Sequence record: NC_007824.1
Reading direction: 5' to 3' (one strand)
Source: Escherichia phage ID62
Length of the DNA stretch: 6,051 nucleotides
Below the pieces are notes generated by a model. That model saw only the letters and a program-made list of their open reading frames with translations, was not told the origin of the DNA and searched no databases. Position 1 is the first letter of the stretch, and each line of letters starts with the position of its first letter. Below, one piece after another: positions 1-6,051 of this stretch. The translations under genes were made by a program, and so were the position numbers.

Positions 1-25
1 TTGTTGACATTCCCTAAACCCTTAT

Positions 26-65
26 GAGACTCTTGCTTCAACGAAATGAAGTTGGAGTCTTTTTT
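26..65 (+). terminator. Imperfect 14-bp stem-loop followed by a T6 run, immediately downstream of the H stop; candidate post-H terminator and/or translational control element
   Basis: Pairs 26-32 with 55-61 (GAGACTC/GAGTCTT, one G-U) and 35-40 with 47-52 (GCTTCA/TGAAGT, one G-U), with T33-G54 as a further wobble, T34/T53 mismatch and 6-nt loop 41-46; TTTTTT at 60-65. phiX174 is known to have a weak terminator after H. Stem is AT-rich, so the call is tentative. Confidence 0.35.
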
Positions 66-434
66 ATGAAACCTGCTCACCGCCTTACTCACCCTGTTCT
101 TGGTTCATGGTTGTTTAAGTGCCCCGTCTATGTTCGTTATGAGTCTGTTCACAATGGTCGCCTTATCAAGGTTCGCGCTGTTCGTGATTTGTCTCCTCGC
201 CAGCAACTGATTGCTAACCCTAAAAATTGTTTTGACGTTGTCATTGTTGAGATTGACTTCACTTATTGCTCTGTTACCTATTTTGATTATGAGGCTGAGG
301 AATATGCTGAGTGTGGCCCAGAGACTATGGATAGCATCATTGCTTATATTAACGCTCCTCACTCCCTTCGCTCTGAGGAGGATTTATCCGTTGATGTTGA
401 TGATATGGAATGGCTCTATGAAATTGCGGAGTAA
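66..434 (+). CDS. Hypothetical protein, 122 aa, basic N-terminal half and strongly acidic C-terminal tail (H-A intergenic ORF 1)
   Basis: ATG at 66 preceded by GGAG (54-57) at 8-nt spacing; open to TAA at 432-434; codon third positions strongly T-biased (gtt, cgt, gct, cct, ctt), as in the canonical genes here. The ORF track starts it at ATG 24, which has no SD. No similarity to any phiX174 protein that I recognise. Confidence 0.5.
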   Translation: MKPAHRLTHPVLGSWLFKCPVYVRYESVHNGRLIKVRAVRDLSPRQQLIANPKNCFDVVIVEIDFTYCSVTYFDYEAEEYAECGPETMDSIIAYINAPHSLRSEEDLSVDVDDMEWLYEIAE

Positions 435-437
435 ATC

Positions 438-527
438 ATGGAAACTGTTATCGGAAAATTTATTGCTCTGGCTGTTGTTGCTCTTATGCTGTATGGAATT
501 TCCCGTTTGATTCGGAGGTTCCCGTGA
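438..527 (+). CDS. Small hydrophobic peptide, 29 aa (METVIGKFIALAVVALMLYGISRLIRRFP), predicted single transmembrane helix with basic C-terminus (H-A intergenic ORF 2)
   Basis: ATG at 438 with GGAG (428-431) 6 nt upstream, starting 3 nt after the ORF 1 stop; TGA at 525-527. Hydrophobic core FIALAVVALMLYGI followed by RLIRRFP. Below the length cut-off of the supplied ORF track. Confidence 0.4.
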   Translation: METVIGKFIALAVVALMLYGISRLIRRFP

Positions 528-700
528 AATATTTTAGTTTGGTTGATGAACATTATGCTTATTGCCTTGATACAAGGATTTTGCATATCACTCGCAGTCG
601 TGTTTCTGACCCTCGGTATGAGCGTCGCTTTCTTACTGATGAGGAGCATCTTGCACTTTTGGATTGGTTGAAAAATCGCCCAGCTTACATTAATTCTTGA
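524..700 (+). CDS. Hypothetical protein, 58 aa, GTG start (H-A intergenic ORF 3)
   Basis: GTG at 524-526 overlaps the ORF 2 stop (ccGTGA, 4-nt overlap typical of translational coupling); GGAGG at 514-518 with 5-nt spacing; TGA at 698-700; T-ending codons throughout. Translation MKYFSLVDEHYAYCLDTRILHITRSRVSDPRYERRFLTDEEHLALLDWLKNRPAYINS. Start codon choice is uncertain. Confidence 0.45.
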   Translation: MKYFSLVDEHYAYCLDTRILHITRSRVSDPRYERRFLTDEEHLALLDWLKNRPAYINS

Positions 701-726
701 CAGACCTTTAAAATACCCTCTATATT
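697..726 (+). promoter_or_regulatory. Candidate sigma70 promoter for gene A (pA-like)
   Basis: Consensus -35 TTGACA at 697-702, 18-nt spacer, -10 TATATT at 721-726; about 34 nt upstream of the gene A ATG; phiX174 has a promoter at the equivalent position. Confidence 0.5.
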
Positions 727-759
727 GCTCTCATAGTTTCACTATGAGGGCTTTTTCGC

Positions 760-2244
760 ATGGCTACTGAAATTTTCTCTGATGTTGTAAAGGCTGTTTG
801 GTCGCATGCTACGGCTAAGCACGCTCATCTTCGTATGGCTGTTCAGGTTGATAATCGTAGCCGTCTTCTTTCTGACCTCGTTTATCAGTTGGAAAAACGC
901 CTTTCTGAAGAGACTCATTTGGATGATGAGACTCTTGCCGTTTATGAATTTCAGACTGCCCTTCTGGAAGACCATATGGCACTGGTTCGGAAGTGTGCTG
1001 CTCAACTTGATAATAGTAACACTATAGACCACCGTACCCCTTTGGATGCCGAATGTGTTTTTCTGTTTGAAATGATTTGTCCGGGTGTTCGCTACGGTAA
1101 AACGTTGAATTCTCTTTGGACTAAGTATGTTGTTCAATGGCCTGAGAAGTTAATCCGTCAGGAGTTGGACATGGTCAAGCCTTTATCTTTTAAAGATGAG
1201 GTTGCTAAGTACATGGAGAAAATGCAGGAAAAAACACGCAAAAATCGCATGACTCAGAAGGTGATTAATGAGATGCGTATTGCTCACCAAAAGGGCTGGT
1301 TCTTTGTATTTGATACGTTGACTCTTGCTGATGACCGTTTGCAGGCTTTTAATGAAAACCCTAATGCTCTTCGTGATTATTTTAGGACTGTTGGTCGAGC
1401 TGTTTTGCGCGCTGAAGGTCGTTCGGTTAAGGATTCCTACAACGACTGCTATCGCTATCTTTGTGTGCCGGAGTTTGGAGGCCAGCACGGCCGTCTTCAT
1501 TGGCACGTTGTGCATATGGTGCGGACTCTTCCTTTGGGAAGTCACGACCCTAATTTCGGTCGCAAGGTACGTAATTATCGCCAGATTAACTCGTTCCGCG
1601 GTATGTGGCCTTATGGTTTCACGCAACCGATAGCTGTTCGCTATCAACATGATGCTTATTCTCGTAAAGGTTGGCTTTGGCCTGTTGACAAATTAGGAAA
1701 AGCAATGCAGAGTAAGCCGTATCAGGCGGTCGCATGGTATGTGACCAAGTATGTAGCCAAGCAATCTGACCAACGTCAGAAAGCTATTACTGAGAGACAA
1801 AAAAAATGCAAGAATCCACTCATGGCAATCTGTCTGAAAAAGGAATTCAGAGTTCGCAGCAGCCGGAAGCTCGGAATGGAGCTCCCTTCGATGGCTCACC
1901 TCAGCAACAAGGTTCTTCTGGAACTGAGCCGAATCAGCTTCGATTCCAGTCCTCTGTATCAGATAGTGAAAGAGAACGCCAAAAAGCAATTGACCTTGAA
2001 CATCGGCGCGCTGCCTTTGCACGTCATTTTGGATGTGCGCCCGGAAGTGAGAAGTATGTTGAAAAATATCCGTCGTTTGATGAAAAAGACACCCGAGTTC
2101 AATTGTCAGAGTTCTATCGCTTCAATGACGGTCACCTTAAAAAATGGGGATATTTCTGATGAAGCACGTCGATACATTATTGATGCAGGAATTACGCCTT
2201 TTGATTTGCGAGCTAAAGCGACTCAGACTTTCGGCGGTAAGTGA
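760..2244 (+). CDS. A: Replication initiation protein A (HUH rolling-circle endonuclease), 494 aa
   Basis: ATG 760 with GAGG at 747-750; contains HUH motif LHWHVV (His247/His249) and twin-tyrosine motif WYVTKYVAK (Tyr327/Tyr331); region KGWFFVFDTLTLADDRLQAF matches the phiX174 A/A* sequence from memory; contains the origin 30-mer. Confidence 0.95.
   Translation: MATEIFSDVVKAVWSHATAKHAHLRMAVQVDNRSRLLSDLVYQLEKRLSEETHLDDETLAVYEFQTALLEDHMALVRKCAAQLDNSNTIDHRTPLDAECVFLFEMICPGVRYGKTLNSLWTKYVVQWPEKLIRQELDMVKPLSFKDEVAKYMEKMQEKTRKNRMTQKVINEMRIAHQKGWFFVFDTLTLADDRLQAFNENPNALRDYFRTVGRAVLRAEGRSVKDSYNDCYRYLCVPEFGGQHGRLHWHVVHMVRTLPLGSHDPNFGRKVRNYRQINSFRGMWPYGFTQPIAVRYQHDAYSRKGWLWPVDKLGKAMQSKPYQAVAWYVTKYVAKQSDQRQKAITERQKKCKNPLMAICLKKEFRVRSSRKLGMELPSMAHLSNKVLLELSRISFDSSPLYQIVKENAKKQLTLNIGALPLHVILDVRPEVRSMLKNIRRLMKKTPEFNCQSSIASMTVTLKNGDISDEARRYIIDAGITPFDLRAKATQTFGGK
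1003..1032 (+). other. Viral (+) strand origin of rolling-circle replication, 30-mer recognised by protein A; predicted nick between G1009 and A1010
   Basis: CAACTTGATAATAGTAACACTATAGACCAC versus the phiX174 origin CAACTTGATATTAATAACACTATAGACCAC as I recall it: flanking blocks identical, differences confined to the AT-rich spacer. Confidence 0.8.
1213..2244 (+). CDS. A*: A* protein, in-frame internal initiation within gene A (about 343 aa)
   Basis: In-frame ATGs at 1213 and 1222 (MEKMQEKTRKNRMTQKVINEMRIAHQKGW) align with the phiX174 A* N-terminus (MKSRRGFAIQRLMNAMRQAHADGW) from memory; GAGG at 1198-1201 upstream. Which ATG is used cannot be decided from sequence. Confidence 0.45.
   Translation: MEKMQEKTRKNRMTQKVINEMRIAHQKGWFFVFDTLTLADDRLQAFNENPNALRDYFRTVGRAVLRAEGRSVKDSYNDCYRYLCVPEFGGQHGRLHWHVVHMVRTLPLGSHDPNFGRKVRNYRQINSFRGMWPYGFTQPIAVRYQHDAYSRKGWLWPVDKLGKAMQSKPYQAVAWYVTKYVAKQSDQRQKAITERQKKCKNPLMAICLKKEFRVRSSRKLGMELPSMAHLSNKVLLELSRISFDSSPLYQIVKENAKKQLTLNIGALPLHVILDVRPEVRSMLKNIRRLMKKTPEFNCQSSIASMTVTLKNGDISDEARRYIIDAGITPFDLRAKATQTFGGK
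1806..2159 (+). CDS. B: Internal scaffolding protein B, 117 aa, encoded inside gene A in a different frame
   Basis: C-terminal EFYRFNDGHLKKWGYF matches the phiX174 B C-terminus (AEFYRFHDAEVNTFGYF) from memory; ATG 1806, TGA 2157-2159. Confidence 0.9.
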   Translation: MQESTHGNLSEKGIQSSQQPEARNGAPFDGSPQQQGSSGTEPNQLRFQSSVSDSERERQKAIDLEHRRAAFARHFGCAPGSEKYVEKYPSFDEKDTRVQLSEFYRFNDGHLKKWGYF

Positions 2245-3038: not shown

Positions 3039-3043
3039 TTGAT

Positions 3044-3057
3044 GGGGCTTCGGCCCC
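3044..3057 (+). terminator. GC-rich stem-loop with UUCG tetraloop in the J-F spacer (mRNA-stabilising or weak terminator hairpin)
   Basis: GGGGC-TTCG-GCCCC, a 5-bp G/C stem closing a cUUCGg tetraloop, followed by AAGGA and the F start; no T-run follows. Confidence 0.5.
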
Positions 3058-3072
3058 TATAAGGATTTATAA

Positions 3073-4356
3073 ATGTCTAATGTACAGACTTCCGCTGAAC
3101 GTATTCCCCATGACCTGTCTCATCTGGTTTTTGAAGCAGGTAAAATTGGTCGCTTAAAAGTTGTTTCTTGGACTCCTGTTGTTGCAGGTGATTCTTTTGA
3201 GCTTGATATGGTTGGCGCTATTCGCCTTTCTCCGCTTCGTCGCGGTCTTGCTGTTGACTCTCGCGTTGACCTGTTCACGTTCTATGTCCCTCACCGTCAT
3301 ATTTATGGTGAAGAGTGGATTCAGTTTATGAAAGATGGCGTTAATGCTAAACCTCTTGCACCTGTGACTTGTTCGCGTGGTTGGGATAGTGCTCAGTATT
3401 TAGGTACAATCCCTTCCAGTACCCTTAAGGTGCCTAAATTTCTTCATCAAGGTTATTTGAATATTTATAATAACTACTTCAAAGCTCCGTGGATGGATGA
3501 CCTGACTTACGCTAACCCGTCCAATATGGAAGGTGAAGACGTTCGTTTTGGTGTTCGTGCTTGTAACCTGAAAACTATTTGGACTGCCCCTTTGCCTCCG
3601 GGTACTGAAACTTCTCATTCTATGAAGACTGAGGCTAACTCTATCGATATTATGGGTTTACAAGCCGCTTATGCTCAATTGCATACTGAGCAGGAGCGTG
3701 ATTACTTCATGACTCGTTATCGTGATATTGTTAATGAATTTGGTGGTAGTACTTCTTATGATGCGGATAATCGTCCTTTGCTTGTTATGCATTCTGAGTT
3801 TTGGGCTTCAGGCTATGACGTCGACGGCACCGACCAAAGTTCTCTCGGTCAGTTCTCCGGACGTGTACAGCAGACCTTTAAGCATTCAGTACCGCGATTC
3901 TTCTGTCCTGAACACGGCACTATGTTCACGCTTGCACTGGTCCGCTTCCCGCCAACTCACGAAATGGAGATGCATTACTTAGTTGGTAAAGAGGATTTAA
4001 CTTATACTGATTTGGCTTGTGATCCAGCTCTGATGGCTAACCTTCCTCCTCGTGAGGTTAATATGAAGCAGTTCTTCCACTCTGGCGATGCTAATGCCAA
4101 GTTTAAGATTGCTGAAGGTCAATGGTATCGTATGCAGCCTGACCGTGTTGCGTTGCCGTATAACTATCTTGATGGCTTCCCGTTCTATAGCGCGATTCCG
4201 TCTAGTGATATTAAGCAGCGTGTTTTGGTCAATACTGACAACTACGATGAGGTTTTCCAGTCTATGCAGCTTGCTCATTGGAATATGCAGACTAAGTTCA
4301 ACTGCACGATTTATCGTAATATGCCGACCACTCGCGATTCCATTATGACTTCTTGA
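3073..4356 (+). CDS. F: Major capsid protein F, 427 aa
   Basis: Length and position after J as in phiX174; AAGGA at 3061-3065 with 7-nt spacing; sequence resembles phiX174 F from memory. Confidence 0.97.
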   Translation: MSNVQTSAERIPHDLSHLVFEAGKIGRLKVVSWTPVVAGDSFELDMVGAIRLSPLRRGLAVDSRVDLFTFYVPHRHIYGEEWIQFMKDGVNAKPLAPVTCSRGWDSAQYLGTIPSSTLKVPKFLHQGYLNIYNNYFKAPWMDDLTYANPSNMEGEDVRFGVRACNLKTIWTAPLPPGTETSHSMKTEANSIDIMGLQAAYAQLHTEQERDYFMTRYRDIVNEFGGSTSYDADNRPLLVMHSEFWASGYDVDGTDQSSLGQFSGRVQQTFKHSVPRFFCPEHGTMFTLALVRFPPTHEMEMHYLVGKEDLTYTDLACDPALMANLPPREVNMKQFFHSGDANAKFKIAEGQWYRMQPDRVALPYNYLDGFPFYSAIPSSDIKQRVLVNTDNYDEVFQSMQLAHWNMQTKFNCTIYRNMPTTRDSIMTS

Positions 4357-4362
4357 TTATGT

Positions 4363-4376
4363 GGGGCTTCGGCCCC
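4363..4376 (+). terminator. Second copy of the GGGGC-TTCG-GCCCC stem-loop, in the F-G spacer
   Basis: Identical 14-nt hairpin to 3044-3057, again followed by AAGGATTT and a start codon. Confidence 0.5.
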
Positions 4377-4392
4377 CTTTAAGGATTTGATT

Positions 4393-4938
4393 ATGTTTCA
4401 AGTTTATGTATCTAAGCATGTTGCCCCGTTCACTTCTAAGAACCGTGCCTTTTCTATTTCCCCTGCCGCTAACCCGCAGGTTGTTAACTCTGGTGAGATT
4501 GTTGCAGGTCGCTCCACTTTCCGCGTTGCGTCTTCCATTGGCGCTGCTTCTAATGGTAGTGGTTTTGCGTTTGTTCAGATGATGGACCCCAATTCTCCTG
4601 ATTCTCAGCAGGTTTTCTCTGTTGCTGCTTCGCTGTCCTTTAGTGTTGACTCGAATTACATTCCTTGTGTTGTTCGTTTTGAGAGCACTGCTGCTCAGCC
4701 TACTGGTTTTAATATTGCAACCTCTGATTTCATTCCGGTTGAGGCTTCTGCTCTTTCTCCTCGTGCGCTTAGTGTTCGCGATTGTGTCACTGTTGATGTT
4801 AAGCCTCGTGCTGAAGGCAATAATGTCTTTGTTGGTGTGGTTTTCTTCTCTGCCTCCGCTAATGCTGGTAATGTTACTGGTGTTGTTTCGATGGCTCAGG
4901 TTGACCACGAAGTTACAGCTTTGCAGCCGCTTAAATAA
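4393..4938 (+). CDS. G: Major spike protein G, 181 aa
   Basis: MFQVYVSKH... aligns with the phiX174 G N-terminus (MFQKFISKH) and ends in ATVLQPLK-like TALQPLK; AAGGA at 4381-4385 with 7-nt spacing. The ORF track start at 4387 is TTG. Confidence 0.92.
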   Translation: MFQVYVSKHVAPFTSKNRAFSISPAANPQVVNSGEIVAGRSTFRVASSIGAASNGSGFAFVQMMDPNSPDSQQVFSVAASLSFSVDSNYIPCVVRFESTAAQPTGFNIATSDFIPVEASALSPRALSVRDCVTVDVKPRAEGNNVFVGVVFFSASANAGNVTGVVSMAQVDHEVTALQPLK

Positions 4939-5073
4939 AAGGCCGCCGCACTCCCGGTTAGATGCCTGCCCAGTGTAGGGCGGACCGAGCCTTACGGAGA
5001 TACCCGATAAACTAGGAACGCGGAAGGCGTAAGCCGCCTTCCCTCCTGCTAAGCCCAAAGGAGACTTTCAGCT
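4939..5073 (+). other. Structured G-H intergenic region; candidate primase-dependent complementary (-) strand origin and/or post-G terminator
   Basis: An 8-bp perfect stem GGAAGGCG (5022-5029) / CGCCTTCC (5035-5042) with 5-nt loop, plus a second hairpin CTGCCC (4966-4971) / GGGCGG (4978-4983); 135 nt non-coding, GC-rich relative to the rest of the genome. From memory, alpha3, St-1 and phiK place their negative-strand origin between G and H. Confidence 0.4.
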
Positions 5074-6051
5074 ATGATAGGTGCCGTTGTAGGTGGTATT
5101 GCTTCAGCCTTAGCCAGTGGAGCCGCTTCTAAGCTGTTTGGTGGCAAACCTGCCGCTCAAGCCGCTACTGAGTCCTCTGGCCTTTCCAATGGTCAAGGTG
5201 TTATTGGTATGGATAATGATGCCGGTATCCAGTCAGCTATTCAGGGTTCTAATGTTCCTAATGGTCAGATTCCCGCTCCCACTCAGACTGGAGGTGTTAT
5301 GGCTGATGCCAAGAATATGATTAAGAATGCCGGTAAGGATTTGCTTGATGGTGTCATGACTGCTGGTAGTGACCGAGTCAAGCAAGCGTTAGTTGATAAA
5401 TTGAGTGGTAATAATGCAAAGAAACAAGGACAAGCAACCCGTGATTACTTGGCTGCGGCCTTCCCTGAGCTCAATGCATGGGAACGTGCTGGAGCTGGTG
5501 CTTCCGGCGCCGGACTGGAATCTTCCGGTCAGGACCAACAGAAGGAGTTGATGCGTATGCAGCTGGATACTCAGAAGGATATTGCTAAGATGCAGATGCA
5601 GAATAATTTGCAGATTGCCGGTATTCAGTCCGCTACTTCTCGTCAGAACACAAAGGATTCTGTTTATGCTCAGAATGAGATGCTTCAGTACAATCAACGT
5701 GAGTCACAGGCACGCGTCGAGTCCATCCTCGCCAATACTGACCTTACGGCTAAACAAGCTACCCATGAAATTATGAGAATGGCTCTTACCCGTGCTCAGG
5801 AGACTGGTCAGCATTTGACTAATAGTCAGATTATGGCTTTGGAGAAGAAAGTTTATGCAGAAATCGGAAAAATTCATCAAGATACTCAAAACGCTCGCTA
5901 TGGTAGCTCTCAAGTTACTGCTACGGCGAAAGACGTTTCGAACATGATTACTGATGCCGCCTCAGGTTTTGGTGATTGGGCCTCTCAACAGTGGAATTCC
6001 TTCTTTAAGGATGGCAAGTCCAACGGTATTCCTCTTAACACTAGAAAATAA
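5074..6051 (+). CDS. H: Minor spike / DNA pilot protein H, 325 aa
   Basis: N-terminus MIGAVVGGIASALASGAASKLFGG and internal RDYLAAAFPELNAWERAGA, IAGIQSATSRQNTKD and VYAQNEML match phiX174 H from memory; AGGAG at 5059-5063. Confidence 0.95.
   Translation: MIGAVVGGIASALASGAASKLFGGKPAAQAATESSGLSNGQGVIGMDNDAGIQSAIQGSNVPNGQIPAPTQTGGVMADAKNMIKNAGKDLLDGVMTAGSDRVKQALVDKLSGNNAKKQGQATRDYLAAAFPELNAWERAGAGASGAGLESSGQDQQKELMRMQLDTQKDIAKMQMQNNLQIAGIQSATSRQNTKDSVYAQNEMLQYNQRESQARVESILANTDLTAKQATHEIMRMALTRAQETGQHLTNSQIMALEKKVYAEIGKIHQDTQNARYGSSQVTATAKDVSNMITDAASGFGDWASQQWNSFFKDGKSNGIPLNTRK

Follow-up and report, generated by a model that had tools for sequence, protein, structure and literature searches.

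The non-coding spacer between the spike genes G and H of Escherichia phage ID62 very probably (roughly 90%) harbours, at positions 4939–5055, the origin of complementary (minus) strand synthesis, a G4-type origin that would act on the incoming viral (+) single-stranded DNA. The evidence was drawn from sequence homology and conservation. On these sequence grounds the element is a G4-type primase-dependent origin of the alpha3/St-1/phiK subtype, as indicated by its G–H position, the lack of a stem-loop II and a stem III of 7 bp. The original prediction, which had named the spacer as the likely DnaG-dependent negative-strand origin by likeness to alpha3, St-1 and phiK, was supported by both homology and conservation. 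All positions refer to the window, the whole stretch of 6051 nt that was analysed, in which the following features were assigned.

4939–5055, plus strand: the whole conserved origin element, homologue of the G4 oric and of the alpha3, St-1 and phiK negative-strand origins, assigned by homology and conservation and read on the packaged strand.
4941–4947, plus strand: 5′ arm GGCCGCC of a long-range stem, which we equate with G4 stem-loop III; it pairs with 4979–4983 and 4985–4986.
4966–4983, plus strand: the second hairpin of the original prediction, CTGCCC/GGGCGG; it overlaps stem III in the loop and in the 3′ arm, and selection on it as a structure is not supported.
4979–4986, plus strand: 3′ arm GGCGG-A-CC of the stem III homologue, with A4984 bulged, assigned by covariation and DNA folding.
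4987–5021, plus strand: linker between the stems, at the position of G4 stem-loop II, holding the block ACGGAGATACCCG (4994–5006).
5020–5047, plus strand: predicted template of the full-length 28-nt primer 5′-AGGAGGGAAGGCGGCUUACGCCUUCCGC-3′, from homology to the G4 primer; synthesis would run leftwards.
5022–5042, plus strand: hairpin I, 8 bp with a 5-nt loop, inside the primer template, assigned by folding, shuffles and alignment; it equals G4 stem-loop I.
5027–5034, plus strand: GCGTAAGC, apex of hairpin I; in the alignment of 22 phage homologues it conforms to the mini-hairpin motif GCGNNAGC / GCGNAGC.
5046–5048, plus strand: 5′-CTG-3′, the predicted primase initiation trinucleotide, with T5047 templating the first primer nucleotide (pppA), from alignment to the annotated G4 start.
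5060–5063, plus strand: GGAG, the Shine-Dalgarno sequence of gene H, read from the sequence, with the ATG (5074) following after 10 nt; it lies in the 3′ part of the spacer, outside the origin.

Its gene order, which is that of alpha3, and its size identify the window as the full-length genome of an alpha3-like microvirus (Alphatrevirus). Its best whole-length matches were MG945254, WA45 and WA13 (~92% identity); alpha3 and St-1 were ~85% identical to it over 81–86% of its length. Gene G ended with the TAA stop codon at 4936–4938 and gene H started with the ATG at 5074, which leaves a spacer at 4939–5073. The non-coding G–H spacer of 135 nt described originally was borne out by these boundaries and by the relatives, in all of which G and H were annotated on either side of a spacer of 134–136 nt. 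It was also GC-rich, as had been claimed, with a GC content of 0.60 compared to a genome mean of 0.45 (sd 0.047). Among all 135-nt windows of the genome 0.12% were as high, and the maximum fell here. We propose that the last 15–18 nt of the spacer (~5056–5073) serve solely as the ribosome-binding region of gene H; in the alignment this tail was variable among relatives, with GGAG/AGG kept.

The (+) strand origin, CAACTTGATAATAGTAACACTATAGACCAC, was found at 1003–1032 inside gene A, with two mismatches to the 30-nt phiX174 origin (the gene A recognition sequence). It lies elsewhere than the G–H spacer, so the two strand origins are separate, as in G4. The H–A intergenic region (window 1–759) is long by microvirus standards and includes an ORF of 136 aa (24–434); such a region is typical of the alpha3 group. 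The same region holds the only perfect 8-bp hairpin of the genome other than hairpin I, the AT-rich CTCATAGT-TTC-ACTATGAG at 730–748, located about 12 nt ahead of the start of the gene A ORF (760).

Homology was assessed with a 166-nt query consisting of the spacer and 14–17 nt of each flanking gene. This query was 91–96% identical to every alpha3-like phage. Identity was 92.8% to alpha3 over the full 166 nt, and 95.6% to St-1 and 94.8% to phiK, both over the first 135 nt of the query. The F–G spacers of G4 (79% identity over 125 nt) and ID52 (82% identity over 122 nt) were also homologous to it. The GenBank record of G4 annotates an ‘RNA primer of replication’ at 3970–3997 and an ‘origin of compl. 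strand synthesis’ at 3998. The annotated G4 stretch reads ATGGACGGCGAAAGCCGCCGTCCCTACTG, and the window aligned to it without gaps as GCGGAAGGCGTAAGCCGCCTTCCCTCCTG. Alignment to the origins of G4, St-1, phiK and alpha3, which had been proposed together with the original prediction, yielded similarity over the full length, including the G4 primer template and start. All sequence-level defining features of a G4-type oric that were tested were present in the window, except stem-loop II. The element also lies at the G–H position of an alpha3-like genome and is highly identical to the alpha3/St-1/phiK origins, as expected for a member of that class. Sims, Capon and Dressler reportedly found in 1979 that the origins of St-1, phiK and alpha3 are primed by DnaG with SSB alone, in a rifampicin-resistant manner and with no need of PriA, DnaB or DnaC. 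The same biochemical behaviour is known for G4 (PMC6783573). At the G4 origin, primase and SSB suffice for priming; it begins at the T of a 5′-CTG-3′ located 3′ of three stem-loops, and the primer can reach 28 nt (PMC6783573). Two primase molecules bind in regions that the G4 stem-loops keep free of SSB (PMC6783573).

The CTG at 5046–5048 aligned with the CTG of G4, in which the T is the last base of the annotated primer and the G is the origin feature. It was invariant in 24/24 homologues, plasmids included, and in both the window and G4 the initiating T was the fifth base past the stem of hairpin I. Given the gap-free alignment to the annotated G4 primer and start, the primer is predicted to begin opposite T5047. 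This predicted primer, which begins AGGAGGGAAGGCGG, was identical to the annotated 28-nt G4 primer (AGUAGGGACGGCGGCUUUCGCCGUCCAU) at 22 of 28 positions. The CTG highlighted originally, in the 5′ arm of the second hairpin, is not the relevant one; the predicted start lies just 3′ of the 8-bp hairpin instead.

By analogy with G4, host SSB would coat the incoming circle, leaving hairpin I (5022–5042) and the long-range stem (4941–4947/4979–4986) SSB-free. DnaG primase would then bind the SSB-phased structure directly, without a PriA primosome, and begin the RNA primer opposite T5047 of the CTG, a position predicted by homology only. Leftward copying through hairpin I would give pppAGGAGGGAAGGCGG..., up to ~28 nt, and extension of this primer by DNA polymerase III would convert the circle to the replicative form. 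For ID62, its homologues are the basis on which we infer where priming starts, that primase and SSB are required and that PriA is dispensable.

The perfect 8-bp hairpin that had been described, GGAAGGCG-TAAGC-CGCCTTCC, was recovered exactly at 5022–5029/5035–5042. As DNA, hairpin I had a folding energy of −9.2 kcal/mol (z = −3.86), and 0 of 200 shuffles were as stable. Dinucleotide shuffles of the whole genome gave a perfect hairpin with ≥8 bp, ≥6 G–C pairs and a loop of 3–8 nt in only 1% of cases, and hairpin I was one of two perfect 8-bp hairpins with a 3–8 nt loop in the genome. Across 21 distinct phage sequences it was paired throughout (100%), and its fourth pair was A–T in alpha3-like and C–G in G4-like phages, constituting one compensatory pair between the clades.

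The apex of hairpin I read GCG-N(1–2)-AGC in 22/22 phage homologues. Variation was confined to N, which was AA, TT, CA, TA or T, and the ‘loop’ bases A, G and C were invariant across the 22 phage copies. The mini-hairpin motif alone was not enriched on the plus strand of the genome (1 observed, 1.7 expected). A review of mini-hairpin DNA has defined this motif and located it in hairpin I of G4, St-1 and alpha3; with reference to Sims et al. 1979, it reports the apex sequences GCGAAAGC for G4 and GCGTTAGC for both St-1 and alpha3 (PMC13037366). These literature sequences matched our alignment, in which GCGTTAGC was found in the G–H spacers of alpha3, St-1 and phiK. It has been proposed that the mini-hairpin, and not the long hairpin, excludes SSB and is presented to primase (PMC13037366).

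Pairs were counted on an alignment of 22 phage copies, later extended to 24 with two plasmid copies. In the long-range stem 99.4% of the cells were paired, one-sided changes were absent, and 0 of 500 shuffles reached the observed score. Pair 4944–4982 was C–G in 16 sequences and T–A in 7, and pair 4945–4981 was G–C in 21 and A–T in 2 (NC28 and Lilleven, with spacers that differ elsewhere); these covarying pairs are less than 40 nt apart and could have spread jointly by recombination, so that the independent events are few and their number uncertain. In WA45, reading the alignment by hand, the 3′ arm has changed from GA to TG, which shifts the bulge and keeps 7 pairs. The long-range stem was the minimum-energy DNA fold of 4939–4990, as was its equivalent in G4. 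It was weak (7 bp and a bulge, −8.1 kcal/mol) and no better than shuffles (z = 0.07). The local hairpin at 4966–4983 competes with it and becomes the minimum-energy fold in the alpha3 variant. Two extra stem III pairs, as in G4, were also considered; they pair in only the 3 G4-like sequences and are not applicable to the window.

This local hairpin, the second structure of the original prediction, did not hold up. It has 6 pairs including one T·G mismatch, and its stability (−4.5 kcal/mol, z = −0.98) was like that of shuffles. No pair showed a two-sided change in 23 distinct homologues, and its covariation equalled that of shuffles (500/500). The T·G mismatch was present in 16 of 23 sequences, and the hairpin was broken in the plasmid homologue pRes13. 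Setting this z-score against that of hairpin I (−3.86), one of the two structures described originally stands on its own statistics and the other does not. An RNAalifold consensus, consisting of the local hairpin and a GGC/GCC closing stem, was rejected; it counts G–U pairs, which are mismatches in DNA, and lacks covariation. RNAalifold favours the local hairpin because RNA rules accept G–U pairs.

In the linker, the block ACGGAGATACCCG was conserved in both phages and plasmids. Stem-loop II was sought by DNA folding of 4988–5021, where no stem was found (−1.5 kcal/mol, z = 0.18; G4: −5.2 kcal/mol, z = −1.86). In the alignment it was not found in any alpha3-like homologue, alpha3, St-1 and phiK included. 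The missing stem-loop II marks the alpha3 subtype off from G4 and does not remove the window from the family. Three structures are said to phase SSB in G4, stem-loop II among them (PMC6783573). Since stem-loop II is without a counterpart in the window, SSB and primase cannot form a complex of exactly the G4 architecture here. The whole spacer was no more stable than shuffles (z = −1.30), and its special status is a matter of homology and conservation, not thermodynamics.

Conservation was measured as the mean pairwise identity of 14 aligned alpha3-like genomes. The core at 4939–5059 had an identity of 0.948, compared to 0.74–0.75 in the adjoining parts of G and H, in which third codon positions had 0.65 and second codon positions 0.80–0.88. 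Past 5056, where the ribosome-binding region of gene H begins, identity dropped to 0.77. The non-coding core thus evolved more slowly than the surrounding non-synonymous sites, which argues for direct constraint at the nucleotide level.

A rival reading takes the spacer as chiefly an RNA-level signal, with hairpin I acting in the mRNA as a post-G terminator or 3′-end stabiliser, in parallel to the GC-rich hairpins that come after genes J and F. As RNA, the stretch 5015–5062, which includes hairpin I, folded with −16.5 kcal/mol. Genes J, F, G and H of phiX174 are each followed by a weak terminator. Identical GGGGC-UUCG-GCCCC hairpins were located just ahead of the ribosome-binding sites of F and G (3043–3057 and 4362–4376), so that a hairpin recurs in this genome ahead of each late gene. 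However, no T/U run follows the stem of hairpin I, the next bases being CTCCTGCTAAGCC. The ~117 nt that are conserved, including the invariant CTG block and the covarying distal stem, also go far beyond the needs of a terminator, and the same element lies at another gene junction (F–G) in G4. In plasmids the copies are opposite in strand to all annotated genes, which argues for a signal in the DNA strand and not in mRNA. We consider it unlikely that the spacer is mainly such an RNA signal; a minor RNA-level role is possible. The earlier suggestion that it may hold the post-G terminator was not upheld, as the tail after the hairpin (CTCCTGCT) has no T/U run and a terminator and promoter scan gave no site in 4939–5073. 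An Rfam search of both strands at a permissive threshold returned no match for the spacer. The hairpins ahead of F and G are two copies of the 15-nt TGGGGCTTCGGCCCC (5-bp GC stem, TTCG loop; hairpin GGGGCTTCGGCCCC), each fitting directly between the stop of J or F and the AAGGATTT ribosome-binding region of the gene that follows (F or G). They are probably post-J and post-F terminators or mRNA stabilisers.

An intergenic location and hairpins in a microvirus would likewise suit a phiX174-type primosome assembly site (PriA, n′ site) that needs the full primosome, and origin types have been exchanged within the subfamily, since some G4-like phages, e.g. ID18, have a phiX-type F–G spacer. This is very improbable for ID62: the phiX174 F–G spacer shared only chance 8–9-mers with the window, none of them in the G–H spacer, the window's own F–G spacer is just 36 nt long, and the G–H spacer is homologous along its length to the G4 oric, the paradigm of PriA-independent priming (PMC6783573). 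We give still less credence to hidden coding as the cause of the conservation, by either an antisense ORF at 4357–5058 (233 aa) or a plus-strand ORF at 4622–4978. Both enter the spacer and are present in the list of open reading frames, and several relatives have a long antisense stretch without stops. The length of this stretch nevertheless ranged from 76 to 255 aa among relatives, with interruptions in ID21 and NC29; positions 5059–5073 are covered by neither ORF, and substitutions in the spacer track base-pairing and the loop N positions, not codon positions. Microviruses are not known to transcribe more than one strand. On the minus strand, the antisense ORF runs across gene G and the greater part of the spacer; the T-rich codon usage of the coding strand most likely gave rise to it as a by-product. 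A G4-type complementary-strand origin is the reading that we retain.

The distribution of this origin was examined by scanning a degenerate pattern of the priming block against viral, metagenome and genome collections. In these scans the full element was found in microvirus genomes only, including five metagenomic ones. In the metagenome and genome scans, 2 of 38 loci held the element, both on microvirus-sized contigs (L052 and L054). The other 36 loci were dismissed as chance matches in GC-rich DNA without extended similarity. On a soil contig of 6356 nt (Ga0137411_1362210, L044), stretches of 23–24 nt at 4815–4838 (plus strand) and 1541–1563 (minus strand) matched window positions 5032–5055 with ~96% identity, and no further origin similarity was detected on this contig. 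These matches could be due to chance in GC-rich DNA or represent some unrelated sequence repeated in inverted orientation.

Two small E. coli plasmid types carried a near full-length copy of the element (117 of 122 nt). In CP057337 and CP057350 (9.65 kb; CP057337.1, 9653 bp) it had 82% identity, and in NZ_CP062859 and NZ_CP062904 (8.0 kb; NZ_CP062904.1, 8009 bp) 71% identity. Their positions were as follows.

CP057337.1 1083–1201, minus strand: plasmid copy in an unannotated gap (L070 3001–3119).
NZ_CP062904.1 1363–1481, minus strand: plasmid copy in an unannotated gap (L071 3001–3119).

Both plasmid types kept the invariant CTGCTAAGCC block (TCCCTCCTGCTAAGCC) and the stem III arms, and in both the copy was on the strand opposite all annotated genes. 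The perfect 8-bp hairpin I was absent: one plasmid type had an interrupted 7-bp stem and the other no predicted stem, with GCGAAGC kept in both. The 9.65-kb plasmid has genes for a small-terminase-like protein, an AlpA-like HTH regulator and a resolvase, which suggests a phage-satellite-like element. Rfam searches of the plasmids detected no RNAI or other family. We suggest, tentatively and with considerable doubt, that the variation of the apex and the GCGAAGC of the plasmids jointly fit the mini-hairpin proposal and that the origin behaves as a portable module.

The phage ID18 (NC_007856), a Gequatrovirus G4 by classification, had an F–G spacer (L068 138–229) without a G4-type origin. This spacer was homologous to the phiX174 F–G spacer (L073 86–195), with TTTTAATTT and GGTTGA-CAAGCGAAGCGCG-TAG in common. 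The presence of a phiX-type spacer inside a G4 genus indicates that types of complementary-strand origin appear to be swapped within one genus. Sites of the G4-type module were G–H in Alphatrevirus and F–G in some Gequatrovirus, with a phiX-type replacement in ID18, in addition to the plasmid copies at 71–82% identity.

Locating the minus-strand origin and predicting the primer start in a new alpha3-like genome aids annotation and the design of engineered microviruses. The class of element is already known and has been characterised since 1978–79, so no new biology is involved. The comparative gains are modest: covariation backs the distal stem over the local hairpin, the variation seen in nature is compatible with the mini-hairpin model, and the same module is present in small E. 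coli plasmids.

Among known systems, the element is closest to the alpha3, St-1 and phiK origins (Sims, Capon and Dressler 1979, J Biol Chem 254:12615, through its citation in PMC13037366), with which it shares the genus, the G–H position, an identical priming block TCCCTCCTGCTAAGCC, the same hairpin I stem and the stem III homologue. It differs from them in the loop of hairpin I, which has TA (GCGTAAGC) in place of TT, and in the T at 4992 and the C at 5021; the ribosome-binding tail of gene H is of the WA13/ID21 type and not of the alpha3 or St-1 type. With the G4 oric it has in common the full-length homology, a CTG start 5 nt past an 8-bp hairpin I, the GCGNNAGC apex, stem-loop III (a long-range GC stem in which an A is bulged), its place on the packaged strand and a separate (+) origin in gene A. 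In contrast to the window, G4 carries its element at F–G, possesses a stem-loop II (CGGAGA...TCTCCG) and has a stem III of 9 bp instead of 7 bp, and 6 of 28 primer positions differ. The phiX174 complementary-strand origin (PriA / n′ site, F–G spacer) has the same task of converting single-stranded DNA to the replicative form, in the same subfamily and also from an intergenic hairpin region. It is unlike the element in sequence, with no similarity, and in working by primosome assembly rather than direct priming by primase. The G4-type class also occurs among plasmid single-strand initiation (ssi) signals. Like those signals, as represented by the work of Nomura et al. (1991, Gene 108:15) through its citation in PMC6854812, the element would provide primase entry on single-stranded DNA, a putative role that its copies may also have in the two E. 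coli plasmid types.
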